Positions 2,311-61,720 of a DNA stretch of 64,000 bases are shown piece after piece. The DNA is taken from contig JAHRHZ010000289.1 in assembly GCA_024137785.1 (NCBI GenBank), forward strand, positions 20,706,512-20,770,511, given 5' to 3'. Position numbers and translations under genes: made by a program. Under the pieces are notes generated by a model that was not told where the DNA came from, ran no database searches, and saw nothing but the letters and a program-made list of their open reading frames with translations. This DNA is from Ginglymostoma cirratum (Eukaryota). The first letter of the stretch is position 1; each line of letters opens with the position of its first letter.

Positions 2311-2367
2311 TTTTTGTAATATCACATCACCATCCCACTATCCATCCTCAAATAGTCTAGTGGAACG

Positions 2368-4668
2368 AAGAAGTTGCTGGAAAGGTTCAGCAGGTCCGGC
2401 AGCGTCTGTGAAGAGAATGTCTGTGAGTTAACGTTTTGGGTCCGGTAACCCTTGCTCAGAACTGATGCTAGCTAGGAAAATGTTGGTTTATATGCAGAAG
2501 ATAGGGTGGTGGGAGGAATTAAGGAGTAAACAATAGGTCAGGATAGAGCTCAAAGAGAGAAAAGACAGACAAAGAAGTGGATAACAATCTGGCTGGATGA
2601 GTGAATAGCTGATAATGGAGACTGTTAGTGGCTAGCAGCAGGTAGTATGCAATGGCAGACCATGTGATAACAAGGCCTGGTGCATGGGATTGGGAGCTAG
2701 CACATGGTAGAGTTCAGGCCCTAAAATTATTGAACTCGGTATTAAGTCCGGTGGATTGCAGGATCCGCAAGTGGAAAATGAGATGTTGTTCTTCCAGCTT
2801 GTGCTGAGCTTCACTAGAGCACTACAGCAAGCCTGAGACAGAGATGTTGACCAGGGAACAGGGTGGTGTGTTACAGTGGCAGGCAACTGGAAGCTCAGGG
2901 TCATTTTTGTGAGCAAAACATAGGTGTTCTGCGAAATGGTCCCTTTCCATGTCCATCCCCCAGCAGGATGGTCTCAGGTCTCTCCGCTTCTTCCTGGAGC
3001 AAAGGCCCGAACTGTCCCCACCCACCACCACCCTCCTCTGCATGGCTGATCTTGTCCTCACCCTTAACAACTTCTCTTTTAACTCCTTCAGGTCAGGGGG
3101 GTGCCCATAGGTACTCCCATGGGCCCCAGTTATTCCTGTCTTTTCGAGGGATATGTGGAACATTCCTTGTTCCAGTCCTATTCCAGGCCCCACCCACAAC
3201 CCTTTCTGCAATATATCAATGATATCATCGGTGCTGCTTCCCTCTCTTGTCCAGAATTGGAAAAGTTCATCAATTTCACTTCTACCCCATCCTCACTTTC
3301 ACCTGGTCTATCTCTGACGCCTCCCTTCCCTTCCTCGACATCTGTTACCATTTCTGGGGATAGACTGACCACTAATATCCACTATAAACCCACTGACTCC
3401 CACAGCTACCTGGGCTATACATCCTCATACCACACTTTCTGTAAAGACTCCATTCCATTCTCTCAGTTCCTCTGTCTCTGTCACATATGTTTCAATAAGG
3501 CCAATTTCAACAAGACAGCCTCTGAAATGTCCACTTCCTTCCTCAACTGAGGATTCCCCAGCACCTTTGTCAACAGAGCTCTCACCTGGGTCTGACCAAT
3601 CTCCCTCCCTTCAACCCTCACCCCCTCTCTTCCCTCTCTCAACAGCGATAGGGGTCTCCTTCTCCTTAGCTGCCATCCCACCAGCATCCACATCTAGAAG
3701 ATCATCAGCTGCTATTTCCACCCCCTCCAGTGAGATGCCACCACCAGACACATATTCTCTCCCCTCCCTTGTCTGCCTTCAGCAGGGACTGTTCCCTTCA
3801 GGACACCTTAGTCCACTCTTCCTTCACTTCCAACACCACCCAACAGCCCCATGGTACCTTCCCCTGTAACTGCCAAAGGTATAGTACCTGCCCATTTACC
3901 TCCTCCCTCCTCAGTACCCAAGAGCCCAAACTTACCTTCCAAGTGAAGCACCAATTTACCTGCACTTCCCTCAATCTAGTCTACTGTGTTCTCTGCTGAC
4001 AATGTGGTCTCCTCTACGTTGGGGAAACAAAGCATAGACTGGGTTATTGCTTCGCACAACACCTATATTCTGCCTGCAAAAAAAGACACTGAGCTTCCAG
4101 TAGCTGCCACTTTAACACACCATCCTGTTCCCTGACAAACATCTCCGTCTTTGGCTTGCTGTAGTTCTCCAATGAAGCTCAGTGCAAGCTGAAAGAACAA
4201 CATTTCAACTTCTGCTTGGGGATACTACAGCCTTCTGGACTCAATATTGAGTTCAAAAACTTTAGGGTCCAAAATCTTTCATCTCCTAGACCCCAACCCC
4301 GCACACCAAGCTGTGTTATCATATAGTCTGCCATTACACACTACCTAATGTTAGTCACTAACAGTCACCATTAACAACTATTCATTCTCCTAGCCAGATC
4401 GTTATCAACTCTTTTGTCTGTCCAACTGTTCCTTTCTCTCTTTGGGCTCTATCCCCATCTATCATTTACTCCTCACACTCTCACACCACCTTATCTTTTG
4501 CATATAAACCGTCATTTCCTAGCTACCATCAGTTCTGAGGATGGGTCACCAACCCGAAATATTAACTCTGGTTTCTTTTCACAGATTTTGCCAGATCTGC
4601 TGAGCTTTTCCAGCAACTTTTGTTTTTGTTTCTGATTTACAGCATCCGCAGTTCTTTCGGTTTTTATT
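2368..4668 (+). mobile_element. Neptune-type Penelope-like element, 5'-truncated, with an inverted copy of its 3' end at 2368-2940
   Basis: RT motifs GVPIGTPMGPSYSCLF and QYINDII. Linker GTFPCNCQRYSTCPF. GIY-YIG LVYCVLC..GLLYVGETK. HHR motif at 4531-4567. 15-bp TSD tagtctagtggaacg (2353-2367) / tagtttagtggaacg (4669-4683). Contains frameshifts and stops. Confidence 0.92.
4531..4567 (+). ncRNA. Minimal hammerhead ribozyme motif in PLE 3' terminus
   Basis: AGTT-CTGAGGA-T-GGGT(CACCA)ACCC-GAAA-TATT-AACT. Stem I is AGTT/AACT; stem III is the palindrome ATAT. Confidence 0.65.
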
Positions 4669-4779
4669 TAGTTTAGTGGAACGTCTGGTATATGTAACCA
4701 AATTGATGATCATTAGCTGTTGAGGAACAAATCGAAATTTTCATATTAGTTTGCTGTAATCTGGTACAATAACAACAAC

Positions 4780-9124: not shown

Positions 9125-10205
9125 ACATTCACTTGGGATGTGACCATCACTGGCTGGCCATTTATTCTTCAGCCTTAGTTGCCCTTGAGAGGGTGTTGTG
9201 TGAACGCCTTCAACCGCTCAAGTCTATGTGCTGTAGGTAAACCCACAATGCTCTTAGTTAGAGAATTCCAGGATTTTGACCCTGCGACATTGAAGGAGCA
9301 GCAATGAATTTCCAAATCAGGATGGTGAGTGGTTTGGAGGGGAACTTGCAGGTGGTGGTGTTCCCATGTATCTGCTGCCCTTGTCCTTCTAGATGGAAGT
9401 AATCGTAGGTTTGGAAGGTGCTGTATAAGGTTCTCAGGCGAATTTTAGTAATGTATCGTATTGATAGTACAAACTGTTGCTACTGAGTATTACTGGTGGA
9501 GGGATTGGCGGTTTATAGTGCTAGTCTAGGGGGCTTATCCTTCTTGAGTGTTATTGTTGGAGCTGTACTCATCCAAGCAAGCAGGGAGTATTCCATCACA
9601 CTCCTGACTTGTGCCTTGTTAGACAGGTTTTAGGGAGTCTGGAAGTGCTTCTCCTCTTCCTAGCCTCTGGCCTCCTCTTATAACCATTGAGTTTATTTGG
9701 CAATTTCAGTAAGTTTCTGGTCAATTGTGACGACCAAAGCTATTGATAGTGGGGTGAAGGTAATGCCACTGAATGAATGAATAAGATTGTCTCTTACTGG
9801 AGATGGTCATTGCTTGTGCTGCGAATGTAACTTGCCACTTGTCAGCCCAAGCCTGGATATTGACAGGTCTCATTGCATTTGAACATAGATTGAGTCAGTA
9901 TCTGAGAAGTTGCAAATGGTATTGAACTCTTCGCAATCACCAAGAAACATCCCCACTTCTGATCTTATGATAGGGAAGGTCATTGATGAAGCAGTTGATG
10001 ATGGTTGGGCCTAGGCCACTACCCTGAAGAACTCCAGAGATGCCTCGGAACTAAGATGACTGACCTCCAACAACCATGACCATCTTCAGATGTGCCAGGT
10101 ATGACACCAACCAACGAAGAGTTTTTCCCCAGTTTTGCTAGGATTCCTCGATGCCACACATTCAGTCAAATGCGACCTTGATGCCAAGGGCTGTCACTCT
10201 CTCCT
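9125..10205 (-). mobile_element. CR1-group LINE, second family (3' part)
   Basis: Minus strand encodes KAQVRSVMEYSLLAWMSTAPT (~9555-9618). Homologous to 20560-21331, 32990-34680 and 61400-61720. Confidence 0.8.
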
Positions 10206-14782: not shown

Positions 14783-15990
14783 TCGTTCAACGCATCATCC
14801 TCCACCACTTCGGCTACCTGCAATCTGACCCCACTACCAAGGACATTTTTCCCACCCCACCCTTATCTGCCTCCCGGAGGGACCGCTCTCTCCGTGACTC
14901 CCTTGTCCGCTCCAAACTCCCCACCAGCCCCACCACACCCGGCACTTATCCCCGCAACCGCAGGAAGTGCTACACCTGCCCCTTCACCTCCCCCCTCACC
15001 CCCATCCCAGGCCCCAAGAAAACCTCCCACATTAAACAGATGTTCACCTGCACATCTGCTAATGTGATATGACAAGGTGTAGAGCTGGATGAACACAGCA
15101 GACCAAGCAGCATCAGAGGAGCAGGAAAGCTGACATTTCGGGCCTAGACCCTTCTTCATACTGTATCTGCTGTCCCCGACGTGGCTTCGTCTACATCAGG
15201 GAAACCAAGCGGAGGCTTGGAGACCACCTTGTGGCGCACCTACACTCGGTTCGTGACAAACGACTGCACCTCGCAGTCGCGAACCATTTCAACTCCCCCT
15301 CCCATTCCTTAGACAACATGTCTATCCTGGGCCTCCTCTAGTGCCACAATGATGCCACCTGAAGGTTGCAGGAACAGCACCTCATATTTCGCTTGGGAAC
15401 CCTGCAGCCCAATAGTATCAATGTGGACTTCACAAGCTTCAAAATCTCCCTGCCCCCGACCACATCCCAAAACCAGCCCAGCTCATCCCCACCTCCCTGA
15501 CCTGTCCATCTTTTCTCCCACCTATTCACTCCTCTCACCTCAACACCCACCCCCACCTCCTACCTATCAGCGTCATCCCTGCCTCCTTGTTCTGTCCATC
15601 TTCCCTTGACTGACCTAGCCCCATCCTAACTCCCCACCTACACTCACCTTTACTGGCTCCATCCCCACCTCCCTGACCTGTCCATCTTTTCTCCCACCTA
15701 TCCGCTCCTCCCACCTAAACCCCCACCCCATCTCCTACCTACCAGCCTCATCCCCACTTCCTTGACCTGTCTGTCTTACACTTGACTGACCAACCCCCAT
15801 CCCAACTCCCTATGTCCACTCACCTTTATTGGCTCCATCCCCACCTCCTTGACCTGTCCATCTCCTCTCCACCTATCTGCTCTTTTATCCATCTTCCATC
15901 CACCTCCCTCTCTCTATTCATTTCAGAATCCACTTGCCCTCACCCATTTTTGGAGAAGCATCCAGACCCAAAACATCAGCTTTCCTGCTC
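14783..15990 (+). mobile_element. Neptune-type PLE 3' fragment (linker, GIY-YIG, 3' UTR)
   Basis: QRIILHHFGYLQSDPTTKDIF..RNRRKCYTCP (ORF 14695..15072); same family as 51225-52342. Interrupted at 15071-15157. Decayed HHR at ~15945-15985. Confidence 0.9.
15071..15157 (-). mobile_element. 87-bp PLE-terminus/HHR mini-element inserted in a PLE endonuclease region
   Basis: Host gtgatat|actgtatc is split by gacaaggtgtagagc...cttcttc. The minus strand reads GAAGA-A-GGGTCTAGGCCC-GAAA-TGTC-AGC. Confidence 0.8.
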
Positions 15991-17421: not shown

Positions 17422-17546
17422 AAATATGGATGCTGGATATCTGAAATAGAAATGGAAAATGGTGTAAGCATTCTTAACAGATCTGGCAGCATTCGTGGTG
17501 GGAGAACGAGAACTAACATTTCAGGTTGATGACCTTTCATCAGAGT
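17422..17546 (-). mobile_element. Single-arm PLE-terminus mini-element headed by an HHR
   Basis: The minus strand starts at the HHR and continues with the PLE terminus (..atgctgccagatctg..tttcagatatccagcatcc). Confidence 0.7.
17512..17546 (-). ncRNA. Minimal hammerhead ribozyme motif
   Basis: ACT-CTGATGA-A-AGGT(CATCA)ACCT-GAAA-TGTT-AGT. Stem I is ACT/AGT, stem II is AGGT/ACCT. Confidence 0.65.
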
Positions 17547-19232: not shown

Positions 19233-20138
19233 TGACCTGGAATTTCCAATCGCCTGACAGTTGTTATTTCAGGGAATTGTATGTGGGGAGCTTTCACGGC
19301 AAACTCCAAACAAATGGCTAAGGAGATGGAAATTTCTGCTGGGAAATTTCCCATGCCTGGAATCCTCTGAAAGTCTCAGTATTAAATCGGAGAATTCGGA
19401 AGATTCCAATGAAATTAACTAAATAGTCACTTAGAAGAAGCTGAACTGTTAAATGCATATCCTACCTCATGTTTGACTGGTCAACTGACTTCATATTTAT
19501 AACACCTGACTGCAACTAGACCTCTGCCTGATCACTTACACTCTTCAGACCCTGACCTAAGCCCCCTTCCACAACTCTGCAGCTGACTCATCTCCCAACG
19601 CCTCTGGACTGCACCCTCTCTTGACCCTGCTCCATACGCAAACCCCTTCTCCCCCTCTGGATATATTCCCCCTTCCCCTGCCCTCAGATTGGATCTCCAC
19701 AGTACCACCAGACTCATCACACACCTCAGACCTGACTCTCACCCTCAATGCCCCCTGCCAGACCAGATCTTTAAGTCTACCCCAACCTACTCTAAGTACT
19801 GCATTACTTACCAAGCCCATTGCCACCTTGCACGCTGACATTCTAACCACTTGGTGCTTTATCCTTTCCAACCCTGACACCTTCTACACCTGGCACCCTA
19901 GCTCCTACCCAGCTGCCAGTTCTGAGGAAGGGTCACCACACCTGAAAAGTTAACTCTGATTTTTTTCTTCACCAGACCTGCTGAGCTTTTCCAGCAACTT
20001 TTGTTTTTGTGTCAGTTTGCTTATCTGGCTCTCCATAATGAAAATTCTGTCCTTGCCAGCACTTTCCCCAAAGGCAGTGGGCTGGACCAGGAATTTTCCC
20101 AAATTGCAGTATCTGAAATAAGGGTGAAAATCCAGACT
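19233..20138. mobile_element. Non-autonomous TIR (Harbinger-like) element with a C-rich interior
   Basis: Ends gacctggaatttcc / gaaaatccagact are roughly inverted. Start and interior are homologous to 34768-34810 plus 37115-38060. Confidence 0.45.
19917..20010 (+). mobile_element. HHR-headed PLE-terminus mini-element (no tail)
   Basis: AGTT-CTGAGGA-A-GGGT(CACCAC)ACCT-GAAA-AGTT-AACT (19918-19955), then ccagacctgctgagcttttccagcaacttttg. Confidence 0.75.
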
Positions 20139-20559: not shown

Positions 20560-21331
20560 TCATTTGCTGGATGTGGGCTTCTTTGTCAAGGCCATCTTTT
20601 ATTGCGCATTATTATTGCCCTGTAGAAGGGTGTGGTGAGGTTCCTTTTTTAACAGTTCAGTGCCTGGTGGATAGGTACATCCAGAGTGCAGATAGGAGGG
20701 GAATTCCAGGATGTTGAGCCAACAACAGTAAAGGAACAGAAATATATTTCCAAGTTAGGATCGCATGCGACTTGCAGAAGTTGCAAGTGGTGGTGCTCCC
20801 CTGTGTCTGATGCCCTTATCCTTCCACGTAGTAGCAGTCAGGGTTTGGAAGGTGCTGACAAAGGAGACTTAGTGAGTTGTTACAGTTCATCTTGGAGATA
20901 ATACACATTGCTGCCACTGTGCATCGGTGGTGGAGAGGGTGAATATTGAAGGCGGTGAATGGTGCAACAATCAACTGGGTTGCTGTGACCGGGATAGTGC
21001 TGAGCTTCCTGACTGTTGTTGGAGTTGTGCTCCTCTGGGCAAGTGAAGAATATTTCATCACACCCCTGACTTGTGCCATGTATGTGATGGATAGGCTTTG
21101 AAGAGTCCAGGAATAAGTTGCTTGCTGAAGAATTCTGAGCCATTGATCTGATTGTAGCCGTAATGTTTGTAGGCTGGTCCAGATCAGTTTCTGATCAATG
21201 GCAACACCTAAAATGTCAACAGGGATTCAACAATAATAATGTGATTGAATGTCAAGGAGTGATGGTTAAATTCTCTTTTGTTGGAAATTGTCATTGCATA
21301 ACATTTGTGCAGTGTGAATGTTACTTGCCAC
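20560..21331 (-). mobile_element. CR1-group LINE, second family: left part of an interrupted copy
   Basis: ORF 20816..21079 AQVRGVMKYSSLAQRSTTPTTVRKLSTI..NIHPLHHRCTVAAMC; the copy resumes at 22843. Confidence 0.8.
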
Positions 21332-23948: not shown

Positions 23949-24080
23949 AACTGAAAGAACTGTGGACGCTGTAAATCAGCGACTAAAACAGAAATTGCTG
24001 GAAAAGCTCAGCAGGTCTGGCAGCATCTGTGGAAAGAAATCACAATTAACATTTTGGGTCGAGTGACTCTTCCTCAGAAA
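23949..24080 (-). mobile_element. HHR-headed PLE-terminus mini-element with full tail
   Basis: Minus strand CTGAGGA-A-GAGTCACTCGACCC-AAAA-TGTT-AATT, followed by the same terminus as 4531-4668. Confidence 0.8.
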
Positions 24081-32989: not shown

Positions 32990-34680
32990 GCTTTCAGGAG
33001 GTGTGGCAAAGATTTGGGAACTCTCATTTAATCCTGAGTCAAGATAATATGTGGTTTGGAGGCGAAGTTGCTGATGGTGGTGTTACCATGCATCTGTTGC
33101 TGATGTCTTAGGTCACAGAAATTACTGGTTAGGAAAGTACTTTTGAAGGAGCCTTAATGAGATACTGTAGTATGTCTGAAAGAGAGTACACAATGTTGCC
33201 ACTATGAATCAGTGTGGGAGCAAATGAACATTGAAGTTCGGATGCCGATCAAGCAGACTGCTTTGTCCTGGATAGTGTTGACTTTCTTGAGTCTTGATGG
33301 AACTGCATCATCCACGAAACTGGTGAGTCTTTCATCACATTCCTGGTTTTGTCTTGCAGATACTGAACTGAAGAGAAGGAAGGTGATTTAGTCATTGCAG
33401 AATTCAAAGCTTCTGATCTGCTCTTGTAGCCACACCATTTATAAAGCTGGCCTAATTCAGTTTCTGATAGTGATAGAGCTCAGGATATTGACAATGAGGG
33501 ATTTAGTGATTGGAATGCCATTGACTGTAAAGAAATATGGCTAGATTCTCTCTTGTTGGCAATAGTAATGCCTAGGCACTTATGTAACATGACTGTTGCT
33601 TGCCACATATCAGCCCAAACATGAATTCCATCTAAGTTCTTATGGACATGAACTGTCTCAATATTCAAATAATGTGGAACATTGTGCAATCATCAATGAA
33701 CATGACTTTATGATGCACAGATGCTCACTGGTGAAGTGGCTGAGGATGATTCAGCCTAGAACACTACCCTGAGGAACTTCTGCAGAGATGTTCTGGAACT
33801 GAGATGATTGACATACAACAACTACAGCCATTTTCTTCTGTGCTAGTTATGATACTAACCAGTGGAGATTTTCCCTTCCATTCCCATTGACTTCAGTTTT
33901 GATGCCATACCTGATCAAATGCAGCCTTGATATCAGGGGCAGTCACTTTCACGTCACATCTGGAATTCTGCTCATTTGTCTGTGTTTTTACCAAGCTTGT
34001 AATGAGGTCAGGAGCTGAGTGGTCCTGATGGAACACAAGCTGAGCATCAGTGAGCAGGTTATTGCTGAGCAAGTGCTGCTTGACAACACTGTTGGCAACC
34101 TTTTCCATCACTTTGGGATGATTGAGAGTGTTGTGTTATGTTTCACAGTTAGTACGCAGTATACTTTGAAGCAACACGTTTATGAGATTGTCACTATATG
34201 ATCGCATGTGACCTGATGGTATAAAGGTCACTGTCACCATCTTACTGAGGCCACTTGCAACGTGACACTCTGAGGGAAGATTGCAACAGTTTGTAACCGA
34301 ATTACTCAGTACAAGCTAGACACTGAAGTGTCTGTAGTTGTAATTTATGTGTTGCTACCAGGAGCTGCAATGTAAGTCTATTGAATAGTTCAGTACTAAT
34401 GACTCACTTCTAGTTGTTATGTGACTGAAATTAACATAAATATCACCTTATCAAGTGAAAGTACCTGGTGACTGTAAAAGCACATCACTGCACCTATGGC
34501 AGATCATAAGGGCAGAAAAGTTCAGGATAACTGCCCTGTCTATTCATAAGGAAATGACTCCCAGATCCCAAATATCCCATCAGAGAGTAGTAATTGGCCA
34601 GGTTGAATTTGTATCATTTTCATGGATATATCTCGGCAATTTTCTACATTGCCATGTAAGATGTCAATGTCGTAGCCTCC
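32990..34680 (-). mobile_element. CR1-group LINE, second family (RT region)
   Basis: ORF 33893..34111 MEKVANSVVKQHLLSNNLLTDAQLVFHQDHSAPDLIT..DIKAAFDQVWH (RT motifs); interrupted at 34129-34582. Confidence 0.85.
34129..34582. mobile_element. Solo-LTR-like insertion
   Basis: TG...CA ends with a 5-bp TSD GAGAG (34124-34128 / 34583-34587); it cleanly splits the host LINE. Confidence 0.7.
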
Positions 34681-46664: not shown

Positions 46665-46787
46665 ACACCTCCAACTTCAATTTTAAATTAAAAACTGAAA
46701 GAACTGTGGATGCTGTAAATCAGGAACAAAAAAAAAGTTGCTGGAAAAGCTCAGCAGGTCTGGCAGCATTTTTGAAGATAAAAACAG

Positions 46788-46825
46788 AGTTAATGTTTCG
46801 GGTCCGGTGACCCTTCCTCAGAACC
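46788..46825 (-). ncRNA. Hammerhead motif, left arm of the twin
   Basis: GGTT-CTGAGGA-A-GGGT(CACCGG)ACCC-GAAA-CATT-AACT (stem III CG changed to CA). Confidence 0.6.
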
Positions 46826-46862
46826 GTTCTGAGGAAGGGTCACCGGACCCGAACCATTAACT
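46826..46862 (+). ncRNA. Hammerhead motif, right arm of the twin (core variant GAAC)
   Basis: GTT-CTGAGGA-A-GGGT(CACCGG)ACCC-GAAC-CATT-AACT. Confidence 0.5.
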
Positions 46863-48197
46863 CTGTTTTTTCCTTCAAAGATACTGCCAGACCTGCTGAG
46901 CTTTTCCAGCAACTTTGTTTTTGTTCAATTTTAAATTGTCAGTGGTATTCACTCGAATCAACAAAGTGCCAACTTAAATGTGTAAATTGGATTCCAATGA
47001 TGCAGTATTGAAATCTTGGGTCCAGGTTTTCAAGGTAAAATCATGGGTTCATCCTTTATAGGGCTTCCTATTGAGGAAAGCAAATAGGTTTAGACAAGGC
47101 TGAATCAGTTGAGTTGCATTATATTTTTCATAATTTCCTGGATCCTCCCTTCTCTCAGTTTCTTGCTAAAGGTGATGAGAGGTTCTACTCCTTGTAGTTT
47201 TATGAGAATGGATATGATAATGAGGTGCTGATGAAAATTATCAGCATCAAATGTAACAGACTGTGAAGAAAGGATAGAATAGTCTGTACTAGTACACAAT
47301 GTTCTTATAGAGAGCACATGTTCATAAAAGAGTGTTCAAAAATGTACCAGAGTTAAATAACAGTCAATTATGGGTAATGGGAAGCCCTTACAGGCCACAA
47401 ATTACCAGAAGAGACAAGGATAGCCATCTCCCCAATGTGCATGTTGGAACCCTAAGCAATAAGCCTTGTATGAACACAAACCACTCTCCTCAAAGCCAAA
47501 TAAAGACTCGTGAGTCTGAGCCTTCCTGTTGGGCACAATCCCGACATTGACCTCAATTCCAGAATGGAACTCAGAAGTGGCCATGACTGGATATTGGTTG
47601 TGATCTCCCTGGAAGCTGCCAATTAAGAAGCTATCTCTTGAACTCCCATCTATTAAGGATGGCTGGCAAATCCAAGTAGGCAGGCAGCCCATTGGAATAG
47701 CTGGCAGAAGTCTCTGGCTGGTAACGCAACCAGGAAAGATGGGCATTGCTGGGGAAAACAAGAGATTACAAAGCTCCCTCAAAAGGAGGTGCTCTCTGCA
47801 GCCTTGTGAAAATTATGTTATATAATGGATGGCCATAGCCACACCTGGGTGAGTGTGTGCAGGTGTAGGTGGCTCGCTGTGCTGCCATCAAGAGGTTACC
47901 TTCAGAGCTCCATCTCAATGAGAAGCCCATCCACCATTGAGGAAGTACCCAGCTGACCCTCAGTGAGCCAAAAGGTAAACTAAATTGGTTAACAATGTGG
48001 CAAAGTCGCTTGGACGTGTCAAGGTACTGCATGGCTGATTGACACTTTTCTTCTGGTCCTGCCTCCTTATCTTGCCCATGAGACCAGGAAAATTAGTTCT
48101 TTGGATTTCGAAGGTCAATGTATCTGTTTCCATTCAATCCTTTGCTATATACTTTAGGATAATCCTGCTACAGCTATTGGGATTTGATGGAAACCTC

Positions 48198-49460: not shown

Positions 49461-49511
49461 TACAATTTAATCTGGATTTTTGGATTTTGAACCAACAGCT
49501 AATGAGTTTGG

Positions 49512-49619
49512 CTGATTCAGTTCTGAGGAAAGGTCACTGTACCTGAAACGTTAATTCTGTTTTCTCCTCCACAGATGCTGCCAGACCTGCTGAGGTTTTC
49601 CAGCAACTTTGTTTTAGTT
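49512..49619 (+). mobile_element. 108-bp HHR-headed mini-element with TSD
   Basis: Exact 14-bp TSD gctaatgagtttgg (49498-49511 / 49620-49633); contains only the HHR and the PLE terminus. Confidence 0.9.
49519..49556 (+). ncRNA. Minimal hammerhead ribozyme motif, intact
   Basis: AGTT-CTGAGGA-A-AGGT(CACTGT)ACCT-GAAA-C-GTT-AATT. All core bases and all three stems are present. Confidence 0.75.
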
Positions 49620-49654
49620 GCTAATGAGTTTGGACTGTGTTAATGATGTACATA

Positions 49655-50649: not shown

Positions 50650-50824
50650 ACCTCCGGATCCAACACATCATCCTCCGACACTTCCGCCATCTGCAATCAG
50701 ACCCCACCACCAAAGACATTTTTCCCTCCCCACCCTTATCTGCCTTCCGGAGGGACCACTCCCTCCGCGACTCCCTTGTCCGCTCCACACTCCCCTCCAG
50801 CCCCACCACACCCGGCACTTTTCC
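50650..50824 (+). mobile_element. Young Neptune PLE fragment abutting the gap
   Basis: Nearly identical (about 5 substitutions) to ~51346-51520. Confidence 0.9.
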
Positions 50825-51227: not shown

Positions 51228-51980
51228 GTGGTCGAGAACGCCCTCGACCGTGTCTCCCGCATTTCCCGGAACACATCCCTCACGCCCCGTCCCCGCAACA
51301 ATAACCAAAAAAGAATCCCCCTCGTCCTCACATACCACCCCACCAACCTCCGGATCCAACGCATCATCCTCCGACACTTCCGCCATCTACAGTCAGACCC
51401 CACCACCAAAGACATCTTTCCCTCCCCACCCTTATCTGCCTTCCGGAGGGACCACTCCCTCCGCGACTCCCTTGTCCGCGCCACACTCCCCTCCAGCCCC
51501 ACCACACCCGGCACTTTTCCTTGTAACCGCAGGAAGTGCTACACCTGCCCCCACACCTCCTCCCTCACCCCAATCCCAGGCCCCAAGAAGACATTCCACA
51601 TCAGGCAGAGGTTCACCTGCACATCTGCCAATGTGGTATACTGCATCCGCTGTACCCGTTGTGGCTTCCTCTACATCGGGGAAACCAAGCGGAGGCTTGG
51701 GGACCGCTTTGCAGAACACCTGCGCTCAGTTCGCAACAAACAACTGCACCTCCCAGTCGCGAACCATTTCAACTCCCCCTCCCATTCCTCAGATGACATG
51801 TCCATCCTTGGCCTCCTACAATGCCACAGTGATGCCACCCGAAGGCTGCAGGAACAGCAAATCATATTCAGCCTGGGAACCCTGCAGCCCAATGGCATCA
51901 ATGTGGATTTCACAAGTTTCAAAATCTCCCCTCCCCCAACCGCATCCCAAAACCAGCCCAGCTCATCTCCACCTCCCTAA
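51228..51980 (+). CDS. PLE polyprotein C-terminus: Cys linker plus GIY-YIG endonuclease (partial; the 5' part lies in the gap)
   Basis: RIPLVLTYHP..GTFPCNRRKCYTCP..VVYCIRCTRCGFLYIGETKRRLGDRFAEH..PVANHF..H..LGTLQPNGIN; 250 codons without a stop. Confidence 0.9.
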   Translation: MVENALDRVSRISRNTSLTPRPRNNNQKRIPLVLTYHPTNLRIQRIILRHFRHLQSDPTTKDIFPSPPLSAFRRDHSLRDSLVRATLPSSPTTPGTFPCNRRKCYTCPHTSSLTPIPGPKKTFHIRQRFTCTSANVVYCIRCTRCGFLYIGETKRRLGDRFAEHLRSVRNKQLHLPVANHFNSPSHSSDDMSILGLLQCHSDATRRLQEQQIIFSLGTLQPNGINVDFTSFKISPPPTASQNQPSSSPPP

Positions 51981-52231
51981 CCTGTTTTTCCTCTCACCTC
52001 AAGCCACACCCCTATCTCCTATCTACTAACATCATCCCGCCCCCTTGACCTGTCCGTCCTCCCTGGACTGACCTATCTCCTCCCTACCCCCCTACCTACA
52101 CTCACCTTTATTGGCTCCATCCCCGCCTCTTCGACTTGTCTGCCTCCTCTCCACCTATCCTCTCCTCTATCCATCCTCTATCCGCCTCCCCCTCTCTCCC
52201 TTTTTATTTCAGAACCCTCTTCCCCTCCCCC

Positions 52232-52267
52232 ATTTCTGATGAAGGGTTTAGGCCCGAAACGTCAAGT
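52232..52267 (+). ncRNA. Minimal hammerhead ribozyme motif, best-preserved copy
   Basis: ATTT-CTGATGA-A-GGGT(TTAG)GCCC-GAAA-C-GTC-AAGT. Canonical CUGAUGA/GAAA core; predicted cleavage after GUC (52263). Confidence 0.8.
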
Positions 52268-53214
52268 TTTCCTGCTCCTATGATGCTGCTTGACCTGCTG
52301 TGTTCATCCAGCCCCATGCTTGTTATCTCGGATTCTCCAGCTTCTGCAGTACCTTTTATCTCATGAATGAGACTTTTTTTTCATATTTAGTGTTTATGAC
52401 TGAGGGTTCTGTCAGAATATCGGATATTTTTCTTGTCTCCATATGGCACCTAAGGTCTGCTCAGAGGCTACATGATGACTGAATATAGAATTGGTATTTG
52501 GATATGAGATGCATGGAGATAGCATTGGGCTTATGGGGAGATTGGGAGGTAGATGGGCCATGAGGGCAAGAAAGTCTAGCAGCCTCTTTCACAACTTGGC
52601 TCAAATCTCAAAGAATCATGCTAAATCTTCTAACTAGCTGTCTTCACCATTTGCAGAAAGGATAAAGATTCACATATTGATTTATGCAGTACTTTTGAGT
52701 CTGTTCTGATTCTATGTATTTCTCGTGTTAAATGGGCCTATTAGGAGGAAATAAATTTGCTGATTTTTCTTTTAAAATCTGGTGTCAATAACAGCAAATG
52801 CTGTTTAGAAATTAGGTTTGCCAATTAATTTAAAGTTGTTATATAAAATGGTATGTGTAGATAGATCTTTCATTCTGATATACAGCCTTTTCAATGAGAG
52901 TGAAGTTTTATTAATGAGATTGTTGCAGATAGAGCAGATAACACGGGCTTAAGGCATTTTGGCTACTAAGCTGAATAATGTAAGAATGTGAAAGACAGGA
53001 AGCAAAGGAGAATTTTAATTAGGATTGCTGAAATGTCATAGACTATCAATTCTCCAAACATTTTCTCAGAATTTCATTATGTCCCTGTCTTACCAATGTA
53101 TAAATGTATGAAATTATCAGGAGCATCCAAAGTAATTTATTTTCCCTCTGTTTATAATTTTATTTATTATCCTGGCTGCATAATGATCCAGTTGCTACGT
53201 GAGATGACTTGCTT

Positions 53215-61399: not shown

Positions 61400-61720
61400 G
61401 ATTCAATCATTGAATTTGTTAGGTTGCCCTTTATTGTCAGCTCCATACTGCCCGAGTGAAGGAGGCAGTGAGTTGCCTCTCTGAACCATTGTGGTCTTTA
61501 GGATGCAGCAATACTGATAGTGCTATTAGAAAGGGTGTTCCCGGATTTTGAAACAGCTACCCTGAAGGAATAATGATATATTTCCAAGCCTAGATGATGT
61601 GTGGCTTGGAGGGAAGCTTGTATGTGGTGGTATTCCCACATATCTTGCCCTTCTAGATGCTACAAGTCATCAGTTTGGAAGGTGCTGTCAAACAAGACTC
61701 GGTGAACTACAACATTGTTT
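61400..61720 (-). mobile_element. CR1-group LINE, second family: 3' end fragment
   Basis: Homologous to 9125-9460 and 20560-20890. Confidence 0.7.

Follow-up and report, generated by a model that had tools for sequence, protein, structure and literature searches.

Penelope-like elements (PLEs), their hammerhead ribozymes, their tails and the internal initiation of their reverse transcription are already known (PMC4209133, PMC11167929), as are promoters within their pLTRs (PMC2377424, PMC3846280). For a lizard PLE studied in vitro, reverse transcription was initiated internally at two sites, unprocessed RNA was used as template and both strands were extended (PMC11167929). The D. virilis Penelope has a TATA-less internal promoter with a start approximately 120 nt before the hammerhead (PMC2377424, PMC4209133), so a start at the hammerhead itself is not a universal layout. 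Head-to-head pairs of a rotifer PLE were attributed to antisense self-priming (PMC3846280), and lone minimal hammerheads in animal genomes to truncation (PMC4209133). In the PLE literature searched, which omitted most subscription papers and the Repbase notes, no account was found of most copies ending, with a cap G, at a start that coincides with the hammerhead's initial base, or of template jumps into the 5' part of the mRNA.

In the window (the whole 64,000-nt stretch analysed, in whose coordinates positions are given), an insert of 108 bp at 49512-49619 was delimited by sequence inspection between perfect 14-bp target-site duplications at 49498..49511 and 49620..49633 (forward strand), the two 14-mers being identical and occurring nowhere else in the window. 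The original prediction of such an insert, beginning 11 nt before CTGAGGA (which starts at 49523), was thus confirmed, and the element's edge could be refined to about -6 to -4 (numbered from the C of CUGA as 0; +n on the unit is counted from the inferred start, with the A at -4 as +1). The last six of the 11 nt agreed with the family and four of the first five differed from the family majority, so that the first five bases were read as junction filler; the filler was annotated as 49512..49518 (forward strand), the last two bases of which agree with the family at -6/-5 and leave a 2-nt boundary ambiguity. Copying of the filler from the six bases right after the first 3' end was considered as well, and was not relied on since the match has a roughly 1-in-10 estimated probability of arising by chance. 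The focal copy carried no extra G at its 5' junction. Where single-arm copies had a duplication that could be read clearly, 14 bp was its most frequent length (7 of 16); at one locus elsewhere (L074) the left flank ended in an approximately 12-nt inverted copy of the right flank rather than in a direct duplication. The single insert is on its own ordinary, and the new part is the pattern to which it belongs.

The insert contains a minimal type I hammerhead (49519..49556, forward strand) with the architecture given in PMC4209133: the 5' side of stem I (49519-49522), CUGAGGA (49523-49529), stem II (to 49544), GAAA (49545-49548), the GUU cleavage triplet (49550-49552) and the 3' side of stem I (49553-49556). 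The features of PLE minimal type I hammerheads (PMC4209133) were all recognised, namely CUGANGA, an extra base ahead of stem II, GAAA, a palindromic minimal helix III, UH and a stem I of 4-5 bp. Every core base and stem had been noted as present; this held for the core (CUGANGA, GAAA and GUU are complete), but stem II is weakened by mutation, with one pair broken, and stem I contains a G-U wobble. At the base of stem II, G10.1-C11.1 has changed to A-U. The copy is decayed, with 8 differences from the family majority across 101 element bases; three of these fall within stem II and its loop, and another within stem I. In the lowest-energy fold of the focal monomer the core was sequestered, at an energy no better than that of shuffles (z -0.8), and the modelled fold looks like an alternative, inactive one. 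The Rfam hammerhead models gave zero matches at E<=1, and eight other Rfam matches were hairpin look-alikes, none of them a hammerhead. The first base of stem I, the A at 49519 (forward strand), is the putative transcription start (+1), on the strength of the genome-wide breakpoint peak, the TATA spacing and the extra G found elsewhere. The rest of the insert (49557..49619, forward strand) is the remainder of the pLTR as far as the earlier of its two 3' end sites (at +96, counting from the C of CUGA), as placed by the 3'-end clusters, and by comparison with PMC11167929 would hold the RT binding site and the first initiation site. Splice-acceptor-like pyrimidine runs ending in AG before an ATG were seen at 49565-49578 of the window and at about 4185-4200 (minus strand) of locus L264, one in the tail and the other ahead of the likely ORF start. 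An intron reading of these runs (AG-ATG at 49575, and the run before the likely ATG) was rejected, with no good donor by eye and the first AG missing from family B.

The remaining four single-arm copies in the window, with starts assigned by eye from sequence alignments, begin between -5 and +2, as expected from the claim that they start near the 5' edge of the hammerhead. Two belong to family A (19917..20010, forward strand, start -5; and 23949..24080, reverse strand, start about -2, with a 36-nt tail), one is an older copy of a related family (17422..17546, reverse strand, start about -3/-4), and one is a copy of the second family, B, that sits in another PLE and lacks the CU of CUGA (15071..15157, reverse strand, start +1/+2). 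A head-to-head pair of the family A short unit occupies 46724..46926 (no strand assigned; inverted repeat I7), its arms meeting at the inferred start. The 3' part of a long family B PLE lies at 51228..52312 (forward strand), with a GIY-YIG domain above the Pfam cut-off (E 8.8e-6), a 3' UTR carrying a TATTTAT-type box, and a hammerhead at 52236. Many further PLE pieces with RT and GIY-YIG similarity are scattered across the window. Among other features, a long family A-related insertion at 2364-4680 has two arms, one inverted (about 520 nt) and one direct (about 1,800 nt); 97% identical PLE stretches at 50650-50824 and 51346-51520 flank a run of N and may represent a tandem or a duplication made in assembly; the 3' UTR of a family B-type PLE contains, at 15482-15915, a repeat of about 88 nt in four to five imperfect copies; and another dispersed repeat with RT-like coding remnants, likely a LINE, is found at 9234-9385, 20672-21226, 33039-33107 and 61506-61657.

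The genome searched comprised 4.36 Gb, with repeats that seem to resemble those of cartilaginous fishes, and all counts are from this one genome, the single short locus from a metagenome scan being left out. A 41-mer taken 3' of the hammerhead had 9,291 exact matches genome-wide. Evenly spaced genome stretches totalling 400 kb (144,000 N included) were used mainly for base composition and family motifs. Walking up the ORF led to a full unit (locus L264), 3,147 bp long from one hammerhead to the next, and a tandem with an upstream pLTR was also found (L265). The unit is ordered as hammerhead, two 3' end sites, a likely ATG at about +174, ORF, 3' UTR and hammerhead. The ORF of L264 matched RVT_1 (E 1.4e-4) and GIY-YIG (E 0.002), both below the Pfam cut-offs, and with this predicted RT and C-terminal GIY-YIG nuclease the parent can be classed as an EN+ PLE. 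The arrangements known for EN+ PLEs were present, as a partial tandem (L265), a full unit (L264) and 27 head-to-head pairs, as was the optional tail of 30-40 bp: the 3' ends of 93 copies formed two clusters (37 and 51 copies) approximately 36 nt apart, placing the two end sites about 100 and 137 nt past the A at CUGA-4. Family A 3' ends lie in T runs and family B 3' ends outside them. A Cys-x4-Cys-x2-Cys motif is located between RT and nuclease, and in Neptune/Nematis a Cys-rich linker precedes the nuclease (PMC8557442); the clade of the parent element is likely Neptune, a tentative assignment made on this motif rather than on an RT tree. Variants at six tallied sites were common to short and long copies.

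Short copies ending at one spot just before the hammerhead number in thousands. The breakpoint histogram was built from the 41-mer anchor, which is free of 5'-end selection; the first 30 genome matches, which favoured copies containing the entire query, were kept out of it. From the first 100 matches listed for the 41-mer, 93 were taken, and dropping three with N left 90. Among the matches listed, 47 of the 90 tail-anchored copies start in -9..0 (33 single and 14 in head-to-head pairs), the remainder starting in +1..+47 (21), in -10..-40 (7) or spread beyond -40 (15). The earlier judgement that this clustering is not random 5' truncation, for which a flat histogram would have been expected, is therefore upheld by a peaked genome-wide distribution, and so is the view that self-cleavage alone is insufficient, as starts near the cleavage site (+27..+31) were found in two of the 90 copies and no peak was seen there. 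For the 17 recognised long copies, the end points are scattered at distances between 80 and more than 1,500 nt 5' of the anchor. In simulations with a true end at -4, this end was called at -4 in 202 of 300 trials, with a tail reaching -24, so scattered upstream start calls can be explained by chance straying of true -4 ends. Genome-wide, 5,640 exact copies reach -2 and 611 of them still match at -12; when 18 long copies whose core was exact were sampled, 9 had kept the 10-mer in question (-2 to -12) (a low estimate of retention, some loci having been chosen for a mismatch there), and corrected for this decay at most about 22% of copies continue upstream. The edge base is the A four bases before CUGA. 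Starts at -3 to -1 were as frequent as at -4, so that a second start or trimming is needed to account for them.

The upstream sequences of families A and B are otherwise different, with a TATA-type box common to both. In long copies, TATAAA was found at -29 from the A in 62 of 109 family A copies (64 with any motif, 45 without an exact one). Family B has TATTTA at -31 instead, present in 29 of its 46 long copies (31 with any motif, 15 without an exact one). Such a motif has only three matches in the 3,159-nt unit, two of them within the AT run past the tail. The consensus of the Pol II initiator is YYANWYY, and the A stands in an initiator-like context in families A and B alike, about 30 nt from the TATA box, as in the layout of a Pol II promoter.

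Exact copies that start at the A, without the family base at -5 and at -11, were examined for an extra G. It preceded the A in 400 of 755 family A copies, and in 409 of 1,143 (36%) family B copies, compared with 26% expected from composition in each case; the weaker excess in family B can be put down to dilution by pairs joined via a self-complementary AT run. In the sampled copies a G was present at 15 of 30 ends at -4/-3 and at 17 of 90 other breakpoints (P=0.002), and where the duplication was clear the G was not part of it in 8 of 10 cases for family A and 4 of 5 for family B. At one locus (L222) a 13-bp duplication is followed by one G and then by the A, and perfect pairs with both arms ending at the A and a single G between them were seen by eye. 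Since an extra G at full-length L1 copies has been read as the mRNA cap (PMC11702581), the extra G here is, by analogy, likely the signature of a copied cap; against this, some extra Gs are templated by the inverted arm or by slip, and the G could also be a non-templated addition at an uncapped end. From these sequence features we infer that the edge A is a Pol II start and is capped. A transcript start at this position had been among the causes suggested originally, and it is supported by the TATA spacing, the initiator, the extra G and the ORF-bearing copies that start at the same base.

ORF-bearing copies were collected with a motif just 3' of the tail that is found only in the 5' part of the unit (251 matches genome-wide); 71 anchors in 70 loci were sampled, leaving 68 after removal of three with N. 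The start falls in -6..0 for 16 of the 68, in +3..+133 for 32 and further upstream for 20; that of the full-length copy L264 is at -5/-4. Thus, of the 36 ORF-bearing copies that reach the start, 20 pass through it into the upstream pLTR. These 20 of 68 read-past copies would fit some templates being longer than cap-to-end, circular, or joined by transfer, and 3'-repeat transfer, read-through transcripts and a full-length circle, as in the model of PMC4209133, are all candidates.

Taken together, the short copy is quite probably the run-off of an internally started, target-primed reverse transcription at the capped end of a Pol II mRNA. Pol II would start at the A of CUGA-4, placing the hammerhead and the RT initiation sites twice in the mRNA, at the very start and at the end, and RT primed at a chromosomal nick would start inside the 5' end of its own capped mRNA, the template being uncleaved RNA. 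Priming at the 5' set would give run-off copies of 100 or 137 nt, with the cap often copied as an extra G, and priming at the 3' set would give long, randomly truncated copies, which would account for about one fifth of those reaching the hammerhead edge. The cDNA end may then be joined to the other target end, with a duplication of 12-16 bp and frequent filler; alternatively, it may be joined to a second cDNA primed on the opposite strand, to give a head-to-head pair, or RT may jump 170-1,000 nt into the same RNA and copy again. TATA-bearing solo pLTRs could be a further source of short templates.

The short unit lacks the upstream promoter and is therefore likely dead on arrival. The term 'minimal mobile unit' used originally was an overstatement, as the TATA box is left behind and re-copying as a unit has left no sign; the short unit is likely best read as a by-product of the full-length element. 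A shared upstream flank was found in none of 87 plain short copies, bar one pair that was reclassed as long copies. A SINE-like nature, with source copies and a promoter of its own, is likewise at odds with the absence of TATA from the short unit, the lack of a shared flank and the variants shared with long copies.

Directly upstream of 14 of 186 short family A units lies a piece that ends at +176..+932 of the unit, at 12 different sites (13 of the 14 chimeric units came from loci selected for that piece, and one otherwise). Sequence at +176..+932 follows only the 5' pLTR, so these units would have been copied from the 5' end of an ORF-bearing RNA, on which RT would then have jumped downstream. 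Three of the 14 jump pieces (L272, L295 and L306) end at +240, which may mark a third entry site for RT or a hotspot of microhomology. In four other loci (L142, L176, L184 and L189) the first 6-10 unit bases are briefly reiterated upstream of the start, which suggests cDNA-end realignment reminiscent of telomerase-type repeat addition.

In 20 of the 27 head-to-head pairs the outer end of the inverted arm lies at the first or second 3' site, and in 21 of the 27 one arm reaches 0 or beyond. In one pair (L235) private variants are common to both arms, which indicates that a pair may also arise from a single RNA, from a single source copy or by fold-back. By analogy with the lizard system, the pairs fit two priming events on two target strands better than antisense self-priming. 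Fillers of 11-13 nt at two loci (L182 and L212) are the reverse complement of tail ends, that is, very short aborted second arms.

An extension of this reading, put forward tentatively, would liken PLE replication to that of a chromosome-primed retrovirus, with cDNA that normally begins in the 5' repeat, makes a strong-stop at the cap and has to transfer to the matching 3' repeat before the remainder can be copied. The short units would then be failed transfers, and transfer would rebuild a promoter-bearing pLTR; both ideas are somewhat doubtful. Carry-over of the cap G into long copies found no support when G:A was compared between -5 and -8 (P=0.43; at -5, G 10, A 9 and T 29 of 48; at -8, G 3, A 7 and T 90, first 100 of 222). 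Transfer without the G would be compatible with this result, and 20 of the 36 start-reaching ORF-bearing copies pass through the start.

Run-off at a transcription start was weighed against other origins of the edge. The RNA end at -4 could be post-transcriptional, for example where a 5'-3' exonuclease is halted by the hammerhead or a bound protein, with the G added by RT without a template. The coincidence of the edge with the first base of stem I and the common ends at -3 to -1 agree with this; however, it leaves a TATA-type box at -29/-31 in two otherwise differing families unexplained, and the lowest-energy monomer fold leaves the first six bases unpaired, making such an end improbable. 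Still less probable is that RT, on a longer RNA, stalls or drops off at the hammerhead, as had been suggested together with template jumping at the ribozyme. Twenty-one of the 90 copies do end within the hammerhead region (+1..+47), but 15 of these are arms of head-to-head pairs, and the 21 of 27 pairs with one arm extending to at least 0 are consistent with trimming at the join. Stalling would be expected at the 3' side of the structure rather than once RT has passed, and it yields neither the extra G nor the promoter spacing.

That the unit is a retrozyme-like element in its own right, with a small circle or multimer as its template, has an equally slight chance of being correct. Animal retrozymes derive from PLE pLTRs (bioRxiv 10.64898/2026.07.22.740005), and at one locus (L231, about 1380-1640; G000:C8:3081482-3084516) a full short unit is preceded by two additional direct repeats, each of 38 nt, of the beginning of the family B hammerhead. 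These repeats end a few bases past the cleavage site and look like repeated re-copying of the RNA 5' end, an arrangement that could be the seed of a retrozyme-like array. Yet no whole unit of 100-137 nt was found in a head-to-tail array among 186 family A and 98 family B short units, so the circular or multimeric template proposed at first is unsupported for short units, and apart from the 38-nt repeats of L231 head-to-tail hammerhead units are missing. An end at -4 does not exist on a circle, and a monomer released by self-cleavage would begin at +30, near which two of the 90 copies start. The 12 end sites of the upstream direct pieces give no fixed junction, and short and long copies carry the same variants at the six tallied sites. 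U6-type promoters likewise have a TATA box near -30, and a Pol III transcript end carries no guanosine cap. That the edge is a splice junction (family A has AG at -4/-3) or a Pol III start of the U6 type (in family A, T runs mark the 3' ends) is highly improbable, given that family B has no AG at the edge and no T runs at its 3' ends, that no common upstream exon was seen among the 87 plain short copies, that T4 runs occur inside the first 90 nt, and that the start is common to ORF-bearing copies.

If the run-off interpretation is true, most lone minimal hammerheads in this genome (nurse shark assembly, GCA_024137785.1) are run-off products, the abundance of lone hammerheads in animal genomes would be explained, and thousands of insertions record the start site, the cap, template jumps and two-strand priming. 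The ribozyme would then occupy the first 33 bases of a capped mRNA, where cutting would remove the cap, and the RNA copied would be uncut. Direct predictions follow for the existing in vitro PLE system, and the breakpoint histogram together with the extra G makes a simple genomic assay, usable on any PLE family. Should the transfer reading be true as well, the pLTR would be a working U3-R analogue in a telomerase-related RT.

Retroviral minus-strand strong-stop DNA is a short cDNA that runs from an internal start to the capped 5' end, within the terminal repeat. The short units would resemble it in these respects, with a cap at the 5' end inferred here, and differ from it in being primed by the chromosome and integrated as such; copying of the cap as G would be shared with full-length L1 (PMC11702581). 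Non-LTR retrozymes are similar in being short, non-coding, pLTR-related and equipped with a type I hammerhead, but they form tandem repeats, carry mostly canonical hammerheads and are processed into circles (PMC7229834; bioRxiv 10.64898/2026.07.22.740005), whereas the short units here are dispersed, occur alone or in head-to-head pairs, and have a fixed 5' end that precedes the cleavage site. The Penelope elements of D. virilis and Adineta vaga also have promoter and start in the pLTR (PMC2377424, PMC3846280), and the pLTRs of A. vaga a putative TATA and initiator (PMC3846280). The A. vaga pairs were explained by self-priming on an antisense template (PMC3846280), while the arms here terminate at the start inferred for the sense strand, and some are separated by a G. 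The Anolis Poseidon PAc is alike in its two RT start sites matching the genomic tail, its uncleaved template and the extension of both strands (PMC11167929); its ORF begins within stem II and contains the RT start sites, whereas here these sites are in the 5' UTR, with the likely ATG about 174 nt after +1. Neither a transcription-start map nor run-off copies for PAc were found in the accessible part of that report. With EN+ PLEs in general, the family shares an ORF with RT and C-terminal GIY-YIG, a pLTR with a minimal hammerhead, a tail of about 36 nt that may be absent, arrangement in partial tandems and in head-to-head pairs, and target duplications, and it is set apart from them in that most copies end at one base instead of being randomly truncated.
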